A DNA stretch of 61,383 nt from a bacterium (lineage in GTDB: Bacteria > Babelota > Babeliae > Babelales > RVW-14): positions 1 through 61,383 of the forward strand of contig JBDRBF010000023.1 of assembly GCA_043822925.1 (NCBI GenBank), written 5' to 3'. Position 1 is the first letter of the stretch; each line of letters opens with the position of its first letter. The translations under genes and the position numbers were made by a program. Under the pieces are notes generated by a model, which made no database searches, was not told the origin of the DNA, and was given only the letters and a program-made list of their open reading frames with translations. Below are positions 19,590 to 53,545 of the stretch, piece after piece.

Positions 19590-20913
19590 CGCTGCATTTT
19601 TTATTCCTGATTCGTGTGGTTTTTTGATTGTTTTTTCTGGCTTGCTTTTATTTTATATATTTTTAAAACAGCAAAATTTATGGCACAATTTTAGTGCAGG
19701 ATTTACGTGGGGGCTGGTGGCCTACGGATTGCACTTTATCTGGCTCCATGAGCTGCTTGCTAAAAAGTCGTGCGCTGGCACAGGGCTTTCTCTTTTTTTA
19801 TATATATTTATTGTCATATATTTTTCTTTTACGAGTGCTCTTTGGTTTGGCGCTAGTACTTTTTTTGTAAATTTAACACGTAAAATTTGTGTACTAAAAA
19901 CAATTATAAGTGTTTGCGTGATAAGTATAATTACAGGAATTTATTTTTGGTTTTTAGGTAATTACGCATTGTTTTTTATGGGGATCTGTGAAGGTTATCC
20001 ATGCCTAAATCCCGCAATACCATTAGCTCGCTATAAAATATTTTTACGTTTAGTTTCATGTTTATATGGGTTTATGCCTGGAGTAAGTCATATAGATTAT
20101 GCGAGGGATCTTCAATCACCATTTAAATTATATGATATTGTTTATTTAAAGCCTGCGCCAGCATTGCAAACACAAAATAAACTGGCGCTTGAGCAATATG
20201 TATATCATAAGATCGTGCAAGGGAGTACGAAACTTTTGCTTGCTGCAAATGGCGGAAAGGGCGAGGATGGATCCCAGATCAAGTCTGGGATGACAAGACT
20301 TTCAAAGCAAAGTCTTGTCATTTATGTCGCACCAGAAAGTTTTTTCCCATATCCGTTAAATACAAATCCAGAAATACTTAAATTTTGGAGTAACGCATTG
20401 CCATACTCAAGTCATTTACTTATGGGAAGTTTTTATCAAGAAGAAAATAAAAGTTTATGTCACTGCGTATATCATATATTTCATGGTAAAATTATTAATT
20501 GTTATAAAAAAAAACATAGTGTAATTTTTGTTGAAAAAATGCCACCATTCTTTAAAAAATGTATTATACTAAGGGACATGTTTTTGAAAGATTTGTCAGA
20601 GCTGAGTGTAGAAACAAAGTGTAATCAAAAAACTATTTTTACTATTGGATCAACGCAAATAATTTCGCAAATATGTTCAGATTTTTTTTTAAAAAATAAG
20701 GTACAAGATCTTTTATATAATATTCAATGTGATGGTAGTGGCGATTATAAAAATGTGTGTATATTTTTGTATGTAAATGATAGCTGGTTTGTTGATTATT
20801 TTAAAAAAATAATGGAAAATCTAATCTATCTTAAAGTAGCGCAGCTTAGAATTCCCATAGTTTTCATTAATCATACTAAGTGTAAAGAAATATGGTCAAG
20901 ATCCCCGGAATAA
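19516..20913 (+). CDS. lnt: Apolipoprotein N-acyltransferase-like protein
   Basis: N-terminal multi-TM domain, then nitrilase-fold triad motifs APESFF (E), YKKKHSVIFVEKMP (K), QICSDFF (C), and VNDSWF. Confidence 0.8.
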   Translation: MTYKTRRLTIFQLLSTTLLSALLFSAAFFIPDSCGFLIVFSGLLLFYIFLKQQNLWHNFSAGFTWGLVAYGLHFIWLHELLAKKSCAGTGLSLFLYIFIVIYFSFTSALWFGASTFFVNLTRKICVLKTIISVCVISIITGIYFWFLGNYALFFMGICEGYPCLNPAIPLARYKIFLRLVSCLYGFMPGVSHIDYARDLQSPFKLYDIVYLKPAPALQTQNKLALEQYVYHKIVQGSTKLLLAANGGKGEDGSQIKSGMTRLSKQSLVIYVAPESFFPYPLNTNPEILKFWSNALPYSSHLLMGSFYQEENKSLCHCVYHIFHGKIINCYKKKHSVIFVEKMPPFFKKCIILRDMFLKDLSELSVETKCNQKTIFTIGSTQIISQICSDFFLKNKVQDLLYNIQCDGSGDYKNVCIFLYVNDSWFVDYFKKIMENLIYLKVAQLRIPIVFINHTKCKEIWSRSPE

Positions 20914-20949
20914 AATAAGTATATGTACATAACGTAAGAAGGAGCACCG

Positions 20950-21393
20950 ATGCGTGTTTATATGCTCAAAGATGTTGAAAAAGTTGGAATGGCCGGACAT
21001 ATTATTGAAGTTTCAGATGGCTATGCTAAAAATTTTTTATTTCCAAAAAAATTAGCGGTAAATGCAGCTGGTGCACATGCGGCTAGTTATGAAAAACGTG
21101 TCGTTAAAGAAAAGATAGAAAAACAAGTACTTAATAGCAAAATGGACATGCTTGCTGAACGCATAAAAACATTACATATTACTATTAAAGAACGTAGCCA
21201 TGATGATGGTAAATTATATGGTTCAGTTGGAGCAGACGAAGTACTTGTACATTTAAAAGAAAAAGATATCTCAGTTAACAAGAAACAAATTGAATTTGAT
21301 AAAGCAATTAGAAATGTCGGTGAACATAAAGTTACTGTAAAGCTTTCATCGAAACTTAAACCTCAATTTACCTTAAAAGTGGTGGCAAAATAA
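20950..21393 (+). CDS. rplI: 50S ribosomal protein L9
   Basis: DVEKVG...VSDGYAKNFLFPK; GKLYGSV. Confidence 0.97.
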   Translation: MRVYMLKDVEKVGMAGHIIEVSDGYAKNFLFPKKLAVNAAGAHAASYEKRVVKEKIEKQVLNSKMDMLAERIKTLHITIKERSHDDGKLYGSVGADEVLVHLKEKDISVNKKQIEFDKAIRNVGEHKVTVKLSSKLKPQFTLKVVAK

Positions 21394-21394
21394 A

Positions 21395-22798
21395 ATGGCG
21401 GACAATGCACCTACTTTTCAAAAATTCAGACAAGATCAACCTAAACAACGAGAGACTGAAGGCATTTTGGGAAAAAGTTTGCCTTCTAATCTGGATGCCG
21501 AAAAGTCGGTGCTTGCTGCTATTTTGCTTAATGACGAAAATATTACATTAGTTTCAGATCAACTTAAGCCTGACGATTTTTATAGTAAAGCACACGCAGC
21601 ACTATTTCAGTCGATTTTAGAACTTGCTCAAGATTCTAAACGTATTGACCTGGTTGTTTTGCAAGATCATCTTGAAAAACATAATAGGCTTGTTACCGTT
21701 GGCGGTATTGAATATTTAATAGAACTGCAAGAAGACATTCCATCAATGGGATTAATTATTCAGCATGCAAAAATTGTACGTGATAAAGCTGTCTTGCGTA
21801 ACTTAATACATTCGGCAGCTGAAATTATTACAACGTGTTATGACCAAAAAATTAGTGAAATTGATTCAGTATTAGATCAAGCAGAAAGTAAGATTTACCA
21901 AATCTCGAATAAACTTGCGGCGCCAACGTTCGTACAGCTTGATATTTTACTCAAAAAAACTTTCAATCATTTGGCTCAAATTAAAAGCCATCAAGAGGGC
22001 GTTACCGGTGTTCCAGCTGGTTTTGAACGTTTTGACACCATGACATCTGGGATGCAAAAAGGGGACTTACTTATTTTGGCAGCACGACCATCTATGGGAA
22101 AAACAGCGTTGTCTCTTAATATTATGCTTAATGCTTGGAAAAGTGGTGCAGCAGTTGGTATGTTCTCTTTAGAAATGTCTTCAGAACAGTTAATCTTACG
22201 TATGCTTTCAGCCGAATCAGAAATACCAAATCAAAAAATACGTAATGCTCTTGTTTCGCCAGAAGAATGGGTAATTCTTACTAATCATGCTGCAGCATTG
22301 GCTGAAGCAAAGATTTTCATAGATGATTCTGCGACAATTAATATTATGGAATTACGCGCAAAAGCGCGTAAACTTAAAGCCCGTGAAAATATCCAACTAT
22401 TGATTATCGATTATTTACAATTAATTGGGTCTCATGGTCGGCACGAAAATAGAACACAAGAAATTTCAGCAATTTCGCGTGCCCTTAAATCTTTGGCTAA
22501 AGAACTGCAAATTCCAATACTTGCCCTTTCACAGCTTTCACGTTCACTTGAAGCACGTATAAATAAACGTCCCATGCTTTCAGACTTACGAGAATCTGGT
22601 GCGATTGAGCAAGACGCTGACGTCGTGTTTTTTGTATACCGGGATATTGTATATAATCCTGACACTGAATACCCAGATATAGCTGAAATAATTATTGGTA
22701 AACAACGTAACGGTCCGATTGGCTCGCTTAATGTCCGCTTCCGAAGTGACGTACAATTATTTGAAGAAGCCCCACCTGAATTACAAGATCCGTTTTAA
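21395..22798 (+). CDS. dnaB: Replicative DNA helicase
   Basis: AARPSMGKT, FSLEMS, IIDYLQL, LSQLSR, DLRESGAIEQDAD, KQRNGP. Confidence 0.98.
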   Translation: MADNAPTFQKFRQDQPKQRETEGILGKSLPSNLDAEKSVLAAILLNDENITLVSDQLKPDDFYSKAHAALFQSILELAQDSKRIDLVVLQDHLEKHNRLVTVGGIEYLIELQEDIPSMGLIIQHAKIVRDKAVLRNLIHSAAEIITTCYDQKISEIDSVLDQAESKIYQISNKLAAPTFVQLDILLKKTFNHLAQIKSHQEGVTGVPAGFERFDTMTSGMQKGDLLILAARPSMGKTALSLNIMLNAWKSGAAVGMFSLEMSSEQLILRMLSAESEIPNQKIRNALVSPEEWVILTNHAAALAEAKIFIDDSATINIMELRAKARKLKARENIQLLIIDYLQLIGSHGRHENRTQEISAISRALKSLAKELQIPILALSQLSRSLEARINKRPMLSDLRESGAIEQDADVVFFVYRDIVYNPDTEYPDIAEIIIGKQRNGPIGSLNVRFRSDVQLFEEAPPELQDPF

Positions 22799-22871
22799 TA
22801 TTTTTGAGACATAAATTCTGGCCTAAAATAGTTTTGTGCTCAGCATAAAAAATTTAAGAGGAGAGTTTTTA

Positions 22872-23459
22872 ATGTCGGGATTAGTAATGGAGCCTTCAAA
22901 AATCATTTTAGGTATCGATCCCGGCTTTGGCACGACTGGTTACGCAATTCTCAAAAAAGATCAAAATAAAGCAACGCTTTTAGATTATGGATACTTATCA
23001 CTGCCAACGCAAAAACATTTGTCTGAGCGCATTGGTATCTTCTATAATTTTTTTAATTCTAAAATTTCTGAGCTTAAAATAACCCAGCTTGCTATAGAGA
23101 CCCCTTTTTTAGGCAAAAATGTCCAAACGTTTTTAAAACTGGGATACTTGCGTGGCGCTCTGTATTTATTAGCAGACCAGCATAATATAAATCTCTTTGA
23201 ATTCTCCCCACGGGAAGTTAAAGCTGCCGTTACAGGTTTTGGTGGGGCTTCTAAAGACCAGGTTGCGAGTATGATACTTCGGTTTTTTCCCAAGATTAAC
23301 CAAGTAAAAGCTACTGCAAAAAGCGACGTCACTGACGCCTTGGCTGTTTGTTTGACAGGGTTTTGGATGAGTGAACGCAAGAAGTTACTTGCAGCTGTCC
23401 CTGACATGTCCGATAAGTCTAAATTAATTCAAAAAGCAGTTCCAGAGCCGAAATCCTAA
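22872..23459 (+). CDS. ruvC: Holliday junction resolvase
   Basis: ILGIDPG, LAIETPF, VKAAVTGFGGASKDQV, DVTDALAV. Confidence 0.95.
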   Translation: MSGLVMEPSKIILGIDPGFGTTGYAILKKDQNKATLLDYGYLSLPTQKHLSERIGIFYNFFNSKISELKITQLAIETPFLGKNVQTFLKLGYLRGALYLLADQHNINLFEFSPREVKAAVTGFGGASKDQVASMILRFFPKINQVKATAKSDVTDALAVCLTGFWMSERKKLLAAVPDMSDKSKLIQKAVPEPKS

Positions 23460-23481
23460 GATCAACAGAAGCTTAACCAAG

Positions 23482-23509
23482 TCGTCCGATAATGAATATT
23501 ATGTTAACT
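23482..23509 (+). other. dif: dif site (XerC/XerD chromosome dimer resolution site)
   Basis: tcgtccgataa-tgaata-ttatgttaact has the 11-6-11 layout and closely matches E. coli GGTGCGCATAA-TGTATA-TTATGTTAAAT; located where gene orientation converges. Confidence 0.88.
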
Positions 23510-24391
23510 TTTCAGCTTTCTCTTAACTTTGTGACTAAAATCAAAAAAATCTGCCAAACAAAATTTCACCTGTGGTTCATTTTTAGATTCGTCTTTATCA
23601 AAATTAATTTGTTTAAGAAATTTAGAAATGATTTTTTTATTTTTATTATATTTTGGTTTTTTAATTTCCAAATTTACTGTCTCAAAAATATTAAAAAGTT
23701 GAAGATCAATTAGTTCGTTAAAATATTCAATTAAACAGATAAGTGCATTTGAATTTCCATAGAGATATACATTCATCAAAATTTGATAAAAATTAAATTT
23801 TTTATCAATCGAATTTTCCATCTGCATAAGAGCAAAAACAAAATACTCAGGATCCATGGTTTTAACTATTTCAGAATGCTCATTAAAATAAGAACACAAT
23901 ATCCTTCGAGTTTCTTTATTTCCATATGCGGCAACTTCTTTTAGAATTATATCAAAATCGAAATTTTCTTGTTTTTTTTCACTGTATAAATCATTAATAC
24001 ATGATTTATCATGTTTCATAAATTCTTCTAACAAATCTTCTTTAACACGTTTAAGCTCTTTTTTGGGTATAAATCCCAAGAAATCAATCGATCTGAAAAA
24101 ATCCAAAACCTGCTCTCCATCCTGCCTATCTTCACATTCATCATTACAATCAAAATAGTCAGAATCAAGTAATCTTATAAAATTAATTTTTTTATCCGAT
24201 TCAAATTGTTTTTTCATTTGGTGCCAAACAGAAGCTCTTTCTTTCTCAAGACACTGTTTGAAACATTCAAGCGCTACAATAGTCTCTTTGCTCATACCTA
24301 ATTTTGTATGCCTCATGCCCAATAAATATACACTGAAAATCATTGCGATAAATAACAATAAAACAATACGAAAGCATTTGATCATCACCAT
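23504..24391 (-). CDS. Hypothetical exported protein, very AT-rich
   Basis: Signal-like N-terminus ending LLG-M; strong RBS; stop codon lies in the dif XerD arm. Confidence 0.7.
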   Translation of the reverse strand: MVMIKCFRIVLLLFIAMIFSVYLLGMRHTKLGMSKETIVALECFKQCLEKERASVWHQMKKQFESDKKINFIRLLDSDYFDCNDECEDRQDGEQVLDFFRSIDFLGFIPKKELKRVKEDLLEEFMKHDKSCINDLYSEKKQENFDFDIILKEVAAYGNKETRRILCSYFNEHSEIVKTMDPEYFVFALMQMENSIDKKFNFYQILMNVYLYGNSNALICLIEYFNELIDLQLFNIFETVNLEIKKPKYNKNKKIISKFLKQINFDKDESKNEPQVKFCLADFFDFSHKVKRKLKS

Positions 24392-36069: not shown

Positions 36070-38157
36070 ATGAAAAAGAATCTAAGAATATTTGCACTCA
36101 GTACCGCACTTGTTCTTGGCCTAGGAATCACCCATAACATTTTTGCCATGGAAAAAGAAAAAAACAAAGTAAAAGAACAGCAAACAGAAAACGTTTTTGA
36201 AAAAATTTCTCACGACGTATTTAGTACCATTTTTTCAGATCACTTTAATAGACACGAGCTCGAAGACTTACGGCTTGTAAACAAAAAAAGCTTTAAAGCG
36301 ACTATAGATAACGAATACAACAACGCTTACACAAAAATAACCTATGCACCTCTCAACCACATTTATTTCAAAAACCTACTCAGCATTGCAACGTCTGATG
36401 TTATTTCCGATATAAACACCATTGATTTTACCAAACCACTAACGCCATTAACAGACCATGATAAAATAAAAATAGAAGATAATCTTGAAGCCATTTATAA
36501 CGAAAGCAACAAAGACAAAGCTCTTATATTGAGAGACCAATTTCGTAATACTTTTTCAGTAGCACAAAGGCTGCAATATTTTGAAAACAACGAAACCTGC
36601 GCACAATACCTTAAACATAAACTCAATAATCAAATACCATATTTTTTGTTACAAACCTTACAGGAAGCTAGCACCATAGCTTTTCACCCAAAGAACGGCA
36701 ACATAATCGTTGTGCACAGGAATGATTCGGCAATAATATATGACCAAAATGGCAAAAACCCTCAACAACTTGCTACAAATGTTAGAGACATACTTTTTCA
36801 CCTAAAAAACGACAATATAATCGTTGTGAACACTAATAGTGAGGCAATAATCTATGACCAAAATGGCCAAAACCCTCAAACATTTGCTACAAATGTTAGC
36901 TTCCTTGATCCAATCTTTTTTCACCCAAAGAGCGGCAACATAATCGTTGTGCACAGGAATGATTCGGCAACAATATATAACCAAAACGGCAAAAACCCTC
37001 AAACATTTGCTATAAATGTTAGAGACATACTTTTTCACCTAAAAAACGACAATATAATCGTTGTGAACACTAATAGTGAGGCAATAATCTATGACCAAAA
37101 TGGCCAAAACCCTAAAGTATTTGCAAATATTAAAAACATATTTTCTCACCCAAAAAACGACAATATAATCGTTGTGAACAATAATTGTGAGGCAATAATA
37201 TATGACCCAAAAAGCAAAAACCCTAACCAATTTGCTACAAATGTTCTTCGCAGAATATTTTTTTACCCAACTAACGACAATATAAATGGTCTCGTAAAAT
37301 TTTTTCACCCAACTAACGACAATATAAATGGTCTCGGAATAATTTTTCACCCAACTAACGGCAAAATTATTGTTCTGAACAATAATTTTAAGGCAATAAT
37401 CTATGACCAAAACGGCAAAAACCCTAACCAATTTGCTACAAATGTTCGCTTGCTTAATCCAAATGGTTTCGGAATATTTTTTCACCCAACTAACGGCAAT
37501 ATAATCGTTGTGCACGGGGATGATTTGGCAACAATATATGACCAAAACGGCAAAAACCCTAACCAATTTGCTACAAATGTTTACAACATATTTTTTCACC
37601 CAAAGAGCGGCAACATAAATGATCTCGGAATATTTTTTCACCCAACTAACGGCAAAATTATTGTTCTGAACAATAATTTTAAGGCAATAATCTATGACCA
37701 AAACGGCAAAAACCCTAACCAATTTGCTACAAATGTTCTCGGAATATTTTTTCACCCAACTAACGGCAATATAATCGTTGTGAACAATAATTATTGTGAG
37801 GCAATAATATATGACCAAAATGGCCAAAACCCTCAACAACTTGCTACAAATGTTCGCAGAATATTTTTTCACCCAACTAATGGCAACATAATCGTTCACC
37901 ACTCTAATGGCAACGTAGAAATAAAAAGTAATAATTATGCCGAGACACTAGTGAAAACCGTACTTGTTGCCAAATTGTTTAACCAGAAAAGCCGAAACCA
38001 GAAAATACAGTTGCATAGAGATTGGCTAAATATTTTTAAGAACCTGCCAGACTTCGTGCAAAAAGAACTTCAAACAGTAGTTGAAGAAACAGCAGTTGAA
38101 GAAACAACAGGTGAAGAATTTTCAGAAGATCTTTGGCCTTATTGCCAAATTCTCTAA
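36070..38157 (+). CDS. Exported repeat protein: signal peptide, F-box-like motif, beta-propeller repeats, C-terminal CaaX
   Basis: Leader ending IFA-M; FEKISHDVFSTIFSDHFNRHELEDLRLVNK; about 10 copies of FHPxxGNIIVVxxxxxAIIYDQNGxNPxxxATNV; ends CQIL. Confidence 0.85.
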   Translation: MKKNLRIFALSTALVLGLGITHNIFAMEKEKNKVKEQQTENVFEKISHDVFSTIFSDHFNRHELEDLRLVNKKSFKATIDNEYNNAYTKITYAPLNHIYFKNLLSIATSDVISDINTIDFTKPLTPLTDHDKIKIEDNLEAIYNESNKDKALILRDQFRNTFSVAQRLQYFENNETCAQYLKHKLNNQIPYFLLQTLQEASTIAFHPKNGNIIVVHRNDSAIIYDQNGKNPQQLATNVRDILFHLKNDNIIVVNTNSEAIIYDQNGQNPQTFATNVSFLDPIFFHPKSGNIIVVHRNDSATIYNQNGKNPQTFAINVRDILFHLKNDNIIVVNTNSEAIIYDQNGQNPKVFANIKNIFSHPKNDNIIVVNNNCEAIIYDPKSKNPNQFATNVLRRIFFYPTNDNINGLVKFFHPTNDNINGLGIIFHPTNGKIIVLNNNFKAIIYDQNGKNPNQFATNVRLLNPNGFGIFFHPTNGNIIVVHGDDLATIYDQNGKNPNQFATNVYNIFFHPKSGNINDLGIFFHPTNGKIIVLNNNFKAIIYDQNGKNPNQFATNVLGIFFHPTNGNIIVVNNNYCEAIIYDQNGQNPQQLATNVRRIFFHPTNGNIIVHHSNGNVEIKSNNYAETLVKTVLVAKLFNQKSRNQKIQLHRDWLNIFKNLPDFVQKELQTVVEETAVEETTGEEFSEDLWPYCQIL
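36682..37920 (+). repeat. Intragenic tandem repeats (about 38-41 codons each, plus 14-codon partial units)
   Basis: Near-identical DNA units such as ttttcacccaactaacggc and tatgaccaaaacggcaaaaaccct recur throughout. Confidence 0.95.
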
Positions 38158-38290
38158 CCTGAAAAGCCGAAACCAGAAAATACAGTTGCATAGAGATTGG
38201 CTAAATATTTTTAAGAACCTGCCAGACTTCGTGCAAAAAGAACTTCAAACAGCAGTTGAAGAAACAGCAGTTGAAGAAATTTCAGAAAAT
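37967..38290 (+). repeat. Direct duplication of the 3' end of the repeat-protein gene (175-bp period)
   Basis: ttgccaaatt...gaaaagccgaaaccagaaaatacag...gcagttgaagaaa begins at both 37967 and 38142. Confidence 0.93.
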
Positions 38291-38304
38291 AACCTATAAA
38301 TATT

Positions 38305-38346
38305 AAAGTCCCACGAAGTATACTTTCGTATATCTCGTGGGACTTT
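38305..38346. terminator. Bidirectional terminator
   Basis: aaagtcccacga...tcgtgggacttt between convergent genes. Confidence 0.8.
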
Positions 38347-38371
38347 GTTTTCGAACGCATAAAGCTTAAAC

Positions 38372-52724: not shown

Positions 52725-53339
52725 TTAAGAGATTACGCACCCAGTTATTTTATGAGTTGTCTTATAAAAAGCGTCGGCATACTCTTGAGCTAAAATATCT
52801 GAAAATTTATTTTCTATCAGCTCTGCTATCTCTTTTTTCTTTTCATTGTCATAGCATAGATTAAATGCTTTTGAAATTTCATATTTGCTTATATCATGTT
52901 CAAATCGATCAATTAACGTTCTGACTATTTCGACGTTCCCTATTTTTACCGTATCGACAAGAAACCCATTTTTATAAGTAATAAGCGTTATTAAAATTTT
53001 AAATGCCTCAACAATATTCTCATTCATACACATCTCAAGAATCAAACCCAATTGTTCATAATTTTCTGTTTCTAACAATATCTCAAGATACACTTTAAAA
53101 GTTCCATTTTTTACCATTCGCTCTATCTCCTCATGCATATCCCCACGAGTAAGAATTAATAAAGAAAGAGATAATGCCGTCTGCGCCGCTTCCAATAATG
53201 GCTTAAAATATTTTTTAAGAGATCCAACATGAAATAATTTTTTAGTTTGTTGAGCGCCAATAAGATTCTGTCCCTGACAATAAAGTCCAGTTATCAGACA
53301 TAAACTCAAAATAAACAAACATGCCAAAATCTTCTTCAC
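52725..53339 (-). CDS. Exported protein with an ankyrin-like repeat and a C-terminal CaaX (CVIS)
   Basis: GTG 53339 + signal peptide; LVDTVKIGNVEIVRTLI ankyrin-like helix pair; ends GCVIS. Confidence 0.7.
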   Translation of the reverse strand: MKKILACLFILSLCLITGLYCQGQNLIGAQQTKKLFHVGSLKKYFKPLLEAAQTALSLSLLILTRGDMHEEIERMVKNGTFKVYLEILLETENYEQLGLILEMCMNENIVEAFKILITLITYKNGFLVDTVKIGNVEIVRTLIDRFEHDISKYEISKAFNLCYDNEKKKEIAELIENKFSDILAQEYADAFYKTTHKITGCVIS

Positions 53340-53545
53340 TTTTTCCCCTTTTATTTTAAGTACCAAAACCCCTAGGTCCGACGTATCAAAATGTTACAAG
53401 AAAATTATAATCCTACAATATTCAGTGTAAGCAAGTAAGCTGACCAAATGCAATCAAAAACCATTGTTTTACATACATAATCTTTCTTTCTATAATCAAC
53501 CAACATTCAATTTTTTTTAGTACTCTCTTTTTGGAGGATTCTACA

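Follow-up and report, generated by a model that had tools for sequence, protein, structure and literature searches.

A CaaL box created by a frame-shifting tandem duplication at the end of a WD40-like Babeliales protein with a predicted signal peptide

How does a bacterial protein that appears to be exported come to end in a tetrapeptide of the kind that a host cell would lipidate, and is that ending put to use? The question is raised by open reading frame (ORF) P0001 on a contig of 61,383 nucleotides (JBDRBF010000023.1, assembly GCA_043822925.1; the whole stretch is called the window here). Its source is an uncultured bacterium of the Babeliales (Dependentiae), an obligate intracellular associate of protists. 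The frame occupies 36070..38157 (+), stop included in the coordinates, encodes 695 residues and ends EEFSEDLWPYCQIL-stop. An earlier account made from the letters alone, which we call the sequence-only reading, had described a signal peptide, a stretch resembling an F-box, about ten propeller-like repeats, an acidic tail and a terminal CQIL. Our own reading of the sequence agrees with that description. The account had gone on to propose a membrane-anchored effector that hijacks host Skp1-Cul1-F-box (SCF) ubiquitin ligases. We find that the CQIL end arose by a frame-shifting tandem duplication of 175 bp. The best explanation of the whole is a real, exported protein of the WD40 family, most likely directed at the host and lipid-anchored through its newly born CaaL box, a view that we hold tentatively and at somewhat less than an even chance.

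Birth of the CQIL tail

The gene ends inside a tandem repeat of 175 bp (37963-38279; 1.8 copies, 96% matches by Tandem Repeats Finder), which the sequence-only reading had missed. Copy 1 is translated in frame, and copy 2 is entered out of frame, with the CQIL residues and the stop codon read from its first 20 nt. In its native frame copy 2 keeps the conserved module described below and ends ISENNL-stop at 38299, after which there is a likely hairpin terminator, and for this reason we regard copy 2 as the remnant of an older 3' end. Translated in the shifted frame, copy 1 would yield Cys-Cys-Gln-Ile-Val-stop; thus, the Cys at position -4 was created by the frameshift alone. The two copies differ at 5 of 142 nt, and four of these differences fall within the first 23 nt (Fisher p 0.0024). 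Among the changes in copy 2 is GTT to CTC, which makes the X residue Leu, that is, CQIL instead of CQIV. That copy 2 is the changed copy rests on the paralogue L003 from the same genome, which shares the LVAKLF of copy 1.

Contigs from other sequencing runs bear on the junction. In the independent run X2 a contig bridges it exactly, and the only difference is one 15-nt acidic unit fewer. In run X3 one low-depth contig joins 37985 to 38161; it represents either a single-copy form or a collapsed assembly, and its product would end ISENNL. No contig of runs X1 and X4 crosses 38078-38212 or 38051-38320, and these runs are hence silent on the junction. The copy number of the 15-nt repeat AAACAGCAGTTGAAG also differs between the two duplication copies (38072-38118 vs 38247-38279).

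An order-wide family with recurrent CaaX ends

The ORF is more than a chance frame, given that 695 codons stay open in DNA of ~34% G+C, that a paralogue is encoded in the same genome and that relatives of its C-terminal module occur in 40 of the 261 genomes of the order. The paralogue, L003 (429 residues), is 32% identical over residues 429-671 (E 2.2e-12) and has both a canonical WD40 domain (PF00400, 1e-58) and the same C-terminal module, here called the C-module. This module comprises the 50-60 residues after the last blade of P0001, which L003 and proteins of relatives share, and AlphaFold models it as helices at 623-641, 650-657 and 661-670 with a predicted local distance difference test score (pLDDT) of 92-94. 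At E<=0.01 its profile matches the 40 genomes just mentioned, with up to 12 matches per genome that are often in tandem. From the fetched loci 64 ORFs were recovered at E<1e-3, a count that leaves out profile matches of E>1e-3 plus three at 6e-4 to 1e-3 (G129, G130:C103, G258); P0001 itself matches at E 1.2e-25 / 1.1e-25. The signal-peptide rule is passed by 35 of the 42 complete members. The family is multi-copy and order-wide, and its layout consists of a signal peptide, a variable N-terminal domain (N-domain), a WD40 propeller, the three-helix C-module and a variable tail. Tandem arrays of 3 to 6 family genes, some of them truncated, occur at L045 (G016:C7:1-12500), L049 (G155:C17), L054 (G155:C14) and L057 (G015:C19), which suggests that copies are gained and lost rapidly. 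The C-module has no Pfam or PDB match, and we came across no description of the family in the literature. A search for near-length homologues with the whole protein returned 0 of 8000 candidates at E<=0.001, its word index having probably been swamped by the Asn-rich repeats, and of 58 pattern matches from a scan of the protein against genome contigs none was confirmed.

The repeats between the N-domain and the C-module are diverged WD40 beta-propeller blades, as supported by sequence comparison and modelling. There are ten full units of 37-45 residues each and three partial units of 14 residues (at about 396-409, 410-423 and 507-520), and in the DNA Tandem Repeats Finder reports periods of 114 nt (5.2 copies, 77% matches), 237 nt (1.9 copies, 94%) and 42 nt (2.7 copies, 90%). 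Pfam matches of the protein itself are weak (Vps16_N at 33.2 bits, 3.2e-8; ANAPC4_WD40 at 22.1 bits vs a cut-off of 22.9). An AlphaFold model built from 45 family rows (mean pLDDT 66) places strands at 200-619 with pLDDT 65-80, lower at the partial units, and Foldseek matches it to tandem propellers with a best E of 1.6e-13. Together with the homology to L003, these results uphold the beta-propeller that had been proposed from the sequence. The template modelling (TM) scores of the Foldseek matches are only ~0.2; therefore, the blade fold is supported but not the number of propellers or their closure. The sequence-only reading had further held that the repeats are being reshuffled. Contigs of four public runs contain five different joints in 37700-37900 (114-nt skips and back-steps of 42, 97, 111 and 146 nt), none of the contigs covering the whole stretch. 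These joints hint at such reshuffling, but they reflect either polymorphism of the repeat arrangement or assembly ambiguity.

The tail has the form of a canonical CaaL box, as the sequence-only reading had it, with Cys at -4, an aliphatic a2 and a fitting X, and canonical CaaX ends are enriched in the C-module family as well as in the F-box proteins of the Babeliales. Within the family, Cys stands at -4 in 7 of 64 ORFs, against 0-3 at each of the remaining eleven positions among the last twelve, and a terminal C-x-[ILVMF]-x is found in four (CAIL, CQIL, CSIM and CTIQ, from four genera) vs a mean of 0.13 at offsets 1-39. The Babeliales F-box set comprises 94 ORFs picked regardless of their termini, most matches weaker than ~1.2e-4 and nine ORFs running off their locus being left out. 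Six of these ORFs, including one pair of paralogues in tandem, end in C-x-[ILVMF]-x, whereas other offsets average 0.44. In the genome that encodes P0001 (G000) the baseline is 6 of 1317 vs a mean of 5.7 at other offsets. The CaaX ends of the two protein sets look selected. Moreover, the combination of F-box, repeats and CaaX that the sequence-only reading had proposed for P0001 does exist in other proteins of the order: L087 combines a signal peptide, an F-box (49.9 bits) and leucine-rich repeats (LRR) with CQIL, and L091 a signal peptide, an F-box (31.8 bits) and ankyrin repeats with CAIQ.

Genuine F-box proteins with a signal peptide and a canonical CaaX end were noted at six loci, namely L087 (G147:C29), L140, L091 (G157:C1), L146 (G064), L173 (G251) and L157 (G243). 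Their ends are CQIL in the LRR type (two tandem paralogues), CAIQ in the ankyrin type and CLLS, CIIS and CSLQ in the rest. Elsewhere in the window, a 213-residue ORF at 52725-53366 (-) has a lipoprotein-like or signal-like N-terminus, no Pfam family and a canonical CaaX end, CVIS. Three further signal-bearing proteins of the same genome end in C-x-[IL]-L (G000:C9:13656-15203, G000:C11:10367-11587 and G000:C73:5975-7234); their ends are CCHIL in a calcineurin-like phosphoesterase and CNLL and CSIL in two orphans.

One lead concerns the function of the C-module. Its stretch IFKNLPDFVQKEL (residues 651-663, 38021-38059) aligns with VFYELPEAVQKEL from the DNA polymerase iota ubiquitin-binding motif (UBM); the alignment takes in the Leu-Pro core as well as the ubiquitin-contact positions that passages of one source name for the Pol iota motif (PMC8468184). 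A 9-sequence C-module profile retrieves Pol iota UBM entries at E 0.19-1.0 (PDB 2ktf_B at E 0.19). These matches are not significant, they vanish with a 62-sequence profile and Pfam is empty; the C-module resembles the Pol iota and REV1 UBMs in the Leu-Pro core and departs from them in that the likeness is not significant and no Pfam match is found, and we keep the idea as a lead only. By eye, the C-module and the N-termini of some relatives could be taken for a SOCS-box or BC-box; we dropped this idea because Pfam gave it no support. The ESM Atlas returned no usable feature match for the C-terminal part, and its structural neighbours were generic helical proteins.

Competing readings of the protein

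Passages of two sources describe Dependentiae as intracellular protist parasites with many signal-peptide-bearing, eukaryote-like repeat proteins (PMC4776705; PMC6561590). Excerpts of the second place signal peptides on 44% of the coding sequences and 78% of the ankyrin proteins of Chromulinavorax and on most putative effectors of one cultured member of the Dependentiae (PMC6561590), and WD40 and F-box domains of TM6 genomes are noted in parts of the first (PMC4776705). The signal-peptide ankyrin, WD40, F-box and LRR proteins of Babela, Chromulinavorax and TM6 are of the same lineage as P0001 and follow the same logic. This lineage of intracellular bacteria, the order-wide family and the portions of the Dependentiae literature cited here support the earlier impression of a eukaryote-like, exported, host-interacting protein. 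Our literature search turned up no report in which CaaX or prenylation is linked to Dependentiae, Babela, TM6 or Babeliales.

We infer export to the host, prenylation and a membrane role for P0001. The protein would be released from the bacterium by Sec followed by the type II secretin pathway or vesicles, and three secretin genes are encoded in the genome. It would then reach the host cytosol, where host geranylgeranyltransferase I (GGTase-I) would lipidate Cys692 of the CaaL box CQIL; the lipidated Cys692 would tether the propeller to a host membrane, and the tethered propeller could act as a protein-binding scaffold or adaptor. The N-terminus has the order expected for the first step, with MKKNLR, a hydrophobic core of 14 residues and then NIFA/ME, and it passes the signal-peptide rule. 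That rule is a crude heuristic of our own, which is positive for 516 of the 1317 ORFs (39%) of the genome. The ends of the signal peptides of L091 and P0001 are alike (NVNIFAMQDDE and THNIFAMEKEK, the latter within 36070-36160) and a charged linker follows in both; they may represent a shared leader type.

A number of points weigh against this explanation. Exit from the bacterium and the meeting with the prenyltransferase are steps that we infer rather than document. The stretch before the box is acidic, unlike the polybasic stretch of many prenylated GTPases. The repeats are without GH and WD signatures and the partial units are of low model confidence; therefore, the propeller may be imperfect. 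The box itself is very young and may be polymorphic, given the possible single-copy form in run X3. In addition, the genome as a whole has no excess of terminal C-x-[ILVMF]-x, and its excess of C-x-[ILVMF]-L (4 vs 0.38) was defined post hoc; one of the four proteins concerned is a PPP-type phosphatase, and of the 26 members of its family just 1 carries Cys at -4. Because related sequences are not independent, the p-values for enrichment are optimistic. Finally, the sequence-only reading had named homologues without the terminal Cys as evidence that would speak against a lipid anchor. Cys at -4 is indeed missing from 57 of the 64 family members, yet the Cys box recurs far above chance.

The most serious rival holds that P0001 is an envelope or periplasmic beta-propeller with a role in the bacterium itself, and that its CQIL is an accidental by-product of the duplication that is never prenylated. 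A signal peptide demonstrates export across the inner membrane only, and signal-bearing N-termini are as common in this genome as stated above. Furthermore, the box needed no selection to arise, since the shifted frame of copy 1 already gives Cys-Gln-Ile-Val-stop, and a form with a single copy may coexist. We nevertheless consider this rival unlikely. In particular, the family joins eukaryote-type F-box and POZ-like domains to the propeller, and no periplasmic partner is known for these. Its patchy, multi-copy and often tandem distribution is also not what a housekeeping protein of the envelope would show. Terminal CaaX is ~14-fold or more above the genome baseline in two protein sets that were defined independently, and the substitutions between the duplication copies are concentrated in the 20 nt that became newly translated.

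Host-directed lipid anchoring, which we continue to favor, has its closest precedent in Legionella pneumophila AnkB, which parts of three sources describe as combining eukaryote-like repeats, an F-box and a host-prenylated, membrane-anchoring CaaX (PMC2916131; PMC5506055; PMC13081727). Host prenylation of bacterial effectors is established for Legionella and is reported for Salmonella GtgE (PMC13423502). Like AnkB and the other CaaX ('Pel') effectors, P0001 is a eukaryote-like repeat protein of a protist-dwelling intracellular bacterium with a C-terminal CaaX. It differs in belonging to another phylum, in bearing a Sec signal peptide rather than a Dot/Icm type IV signal, in having WD40 repeats and a new C-module instead of ankyrin repeats, and in ending in a CaaL box of the geranylgeranyl class where AnkB has a farnesyl box. 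An AnkB allele with a frameshift-altered tail is mentioned in part of one source (PMC5506055); the frameshift in P0001 creates the box rather than destroys it. In addition, the F-box of P0001 is only a candidate, and the protein is known from sequence alone. A second comparison is with the eukaryotic F-box/WD40 receptors and with FBXL2, which has an F-box and a geranylgeranylated CaaX and is listed among CaaL/I/M proteins in an excerpt of PMC11152559. These share with P0001 the order of an adaptor box followed by a repeat domain, and the WD40 blades are homologous. In contrast, P0001 has a signal peptide, a C-module without Pfam or PDB match, degenerate blades without GH or WD, and no detectable F-box.

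A broader proposal can be built on the same observations, and we regard it as possible but rather doubtful. Babeliales might routinely exploit host prenylation, CaaX ends having arisen repeatedly on Sec-exported mimics of cullin-RING adaptors (F-box/LRR, F-box/ankyrin and WD40/C-module), so that such an end would mark the host-cytosol proteins among hundreds with a signal peptide. P0001 would then have been caught at the birth of its tail, a 175-bp frameshift having given Cys-Gln-Ile-Val-stop and two substitutions in one codon the geranylgeranyl-class CQIL, and its C-module might be a ubiquitin binder of the UBM type. Dependentiae are a large and almost uncultured phylum of protist parasites, and no destination has been assigned to their very numerous signal-peptide proteins. 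Should the CaaX ends be true lipidation signals, they would be a simple, checkable marker of proteins that act in the host cytosol; architectures like those of AnkB and FBXL2 would have evolved independently in another phylum, with its own export route, and a frame-shifting duplication would have given rise to a four-residue lipidation motif in a single step. Otherwise, P0001 is one more ordinary example of the eukaryote-like repeat proteins that earlier work has described for Dependentiae.

A further reading, nested in the best explanation, takes residues ~40-82 for a working F-box that recruits host Skp1/Cul1; P0001 would then be a prenylated substrate receptor of SCF, comparable to AnkB or FBXL2. 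The idea is reasonable for the lineage, since 59 of the order's 261 genomes contain F-box-like domains (39 of them above the cut-off), as do three family members; none of 14 control genomes has one. The three are among 45 scanned family members and come from one genome; they score 25.4, 18.7 and 26.7 bits, and two of them exceed the cut-off of 24.3. These matches sit between the signal peptide and the WD40 region, and other members have weak Skp1_POZ matches. The stretch of P0001, of which the segment FEKISHDVFSTIFSDHFNRHELEDLRLVNKKSF quoted in the sequence-only reading makes up residues 43-75, is positioned as are the bona fide F-boxes in the three members, L087 and L091. Positions 4-45 of a hidden Markov model (HMM) built from 30 Babeliales F-boxes align with it at 5.3-6.3 bits (E 4e-4 as a single target), a score that 4 of 2000 shuffles reach, and its top feature match in the ESM Atlas is an F-box cluster (score 0.92).

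For P0001 itself the case is marginal or fails. With the 30-sequence HMM the ORF ranks only 9th of the 1317 ORFs of its own genome (E 1.5), and with a 103-sequence HMM the score drops to 5.1 bits, which 23 of 2000 shuffles attain. The ESM Atlas match shares 120 of 256 features, whereas true members typically share 170, and hhalign gives the N-domain stretch a probability of 28.5% against the Babeliales F-box. Neither Pfam F-box model (PF00646, PF12937) matches the whole protein or the N-domain alone at E<=10, and a genome-wide search with both misses the ORF. The N-domain has 0 homologues among 1.84 billion representatives; phmmer --max against the family and the genome's own ORFs finds only itself, and BLASTP against the N-domain of L003 gives E 0.5. 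In the HMM alignment the Leu-Pro start is replaced by Ile-Ser and the helix-3 Trp position is Ser/Phe, although the Leu-Pro dipeptide is also missing from several genuine Babeliales F-boxes (L091, L097). AlphaFold gives pLDDT 30-50 over the stretch, and a single-sequence model of the N-domain (pLDDT 44) is uninterpretable. Thus, the F-box assignment of the sequence-only reading is not supported for this protein. The N-domain is possibly an F-box, but from these comparisons a genuine, working one appears improbable, and we consider a prenylated SCF receptor quite unlikely.

That the gene is decaying or its repeats mis-assembled, so that repeat number, partial units and duplicated tail are artefact or functionless wreckage, is very unlikely: a metagenome-assembled genome (1.52 Mb, 86 contigs, 92% complete), DNA units near-identical over 237 nt, the five joints and the poorly modelled partial units would all fit it, but the frame remains open throughout in AT-rich DNA, run X2 reproduces the junction apart from the one short unit and the C-module is confidently modelled.

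Feature coordinates and neighbourhood

Table 1. Features of the P0001 locus, in window coordinates
Feature	Position	Strand	Basis
ORF P0001, 695 residues, stop codon included in coordinates	36070..38157	+	Sequence
Sec-type signal peptide, residues 1-26 (MKKNLR, hydrophobic core, NIFA/ME)	36070..36147	+	Sequence reading and heuristic
Orphan helical N-terminal domain, residues 27-202	36148..36675	+	No Pfam match at E<=0.1; 0 matches in 1.84 billion representatives; AlphaFold pLDDT 40-50, all helical
F-box-like stretch, residues 40-82, sub-threshold resemblance only	36187..36315	+	Babeliales F-box HMM, hhalign, ESM Atlas
WD40-derived repeat region, residues 203-619, 10 full and 3 partial units	36676..37926	+	Repeat analysis, paralogue, AlphaFold, Foldseek
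Two partial 14-residue units, residues 396-423, from 42-nt tandem repeat	37255..37338	+	Tandem Repeats Finder; low pLDDT at 389-420
Third partial 14-residue unit, residues 507-520	37588..37629	+	Repeat alignment; low pLDDT at 497-513
Conserved C-terminal three-helix module, residues ~620-672, nearly invariant LP, family hallmark	37927..38085	+	Alignments, profile E 1.2e-25, helices
Copy 1 of 175-bp tandem duplication, in frame: module and acidic tail	37963..38137	+	Tandem Repeats Finder, translation
15-nt repeat AAACAGCAGTTGAAG, 3.1 copies, encodes acidic tail	38072..38118	+	Tandem Repeats Finder; one unit fewer in run X2
Copy 2; first 20 nt out of frame = (P)YCQIL-stop; native frame LIAKFSNLKSRNQ...AVEEISENNL-stop	38138..38299	+	Translation, run X2 junction
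CaaX box C692-Q-I-L695	38143..38154	+	Sequence; CaaL/I/M class as GGTase-I target in an excerpt of PMC11152559
Likely intrinsic terminator, strong hairpin then UUUGUUUU, 3' of copy 2	38304..38347	+	Folding -26.5 kcal/mol, z -6.6, 0/200 shuffles as stable

The hairpin of the likely terminator was revealed by folding and is absent from the pattern-scan list. The neighbours of P0001 are housekeeping genes, namely those for prolyl-tRNA synthetase (ProRS), guanylate kinase, an EamA transporter and LptF/G, and the adjoining ProRS shares 65% identity with the enzyme of a 'Candidatus Babeliales' genome. In a Babeliales relative (L010, 727-4856) the slot between guanylate kinase and LptF/G is filled by a protein of 688 residues instead of P0001. 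At the same locus a signal-bearing ORF of 463 residues adjoins ProRS, and its GAECGLH stretch resembles a Cys-protease motif by eye. Across the window the GC skew is positive to ~22 kb and negative beyond, and the cumulative skew peaks at ~20-22 kb (window about 20000-24000), which may represent a replication origin or terminus.

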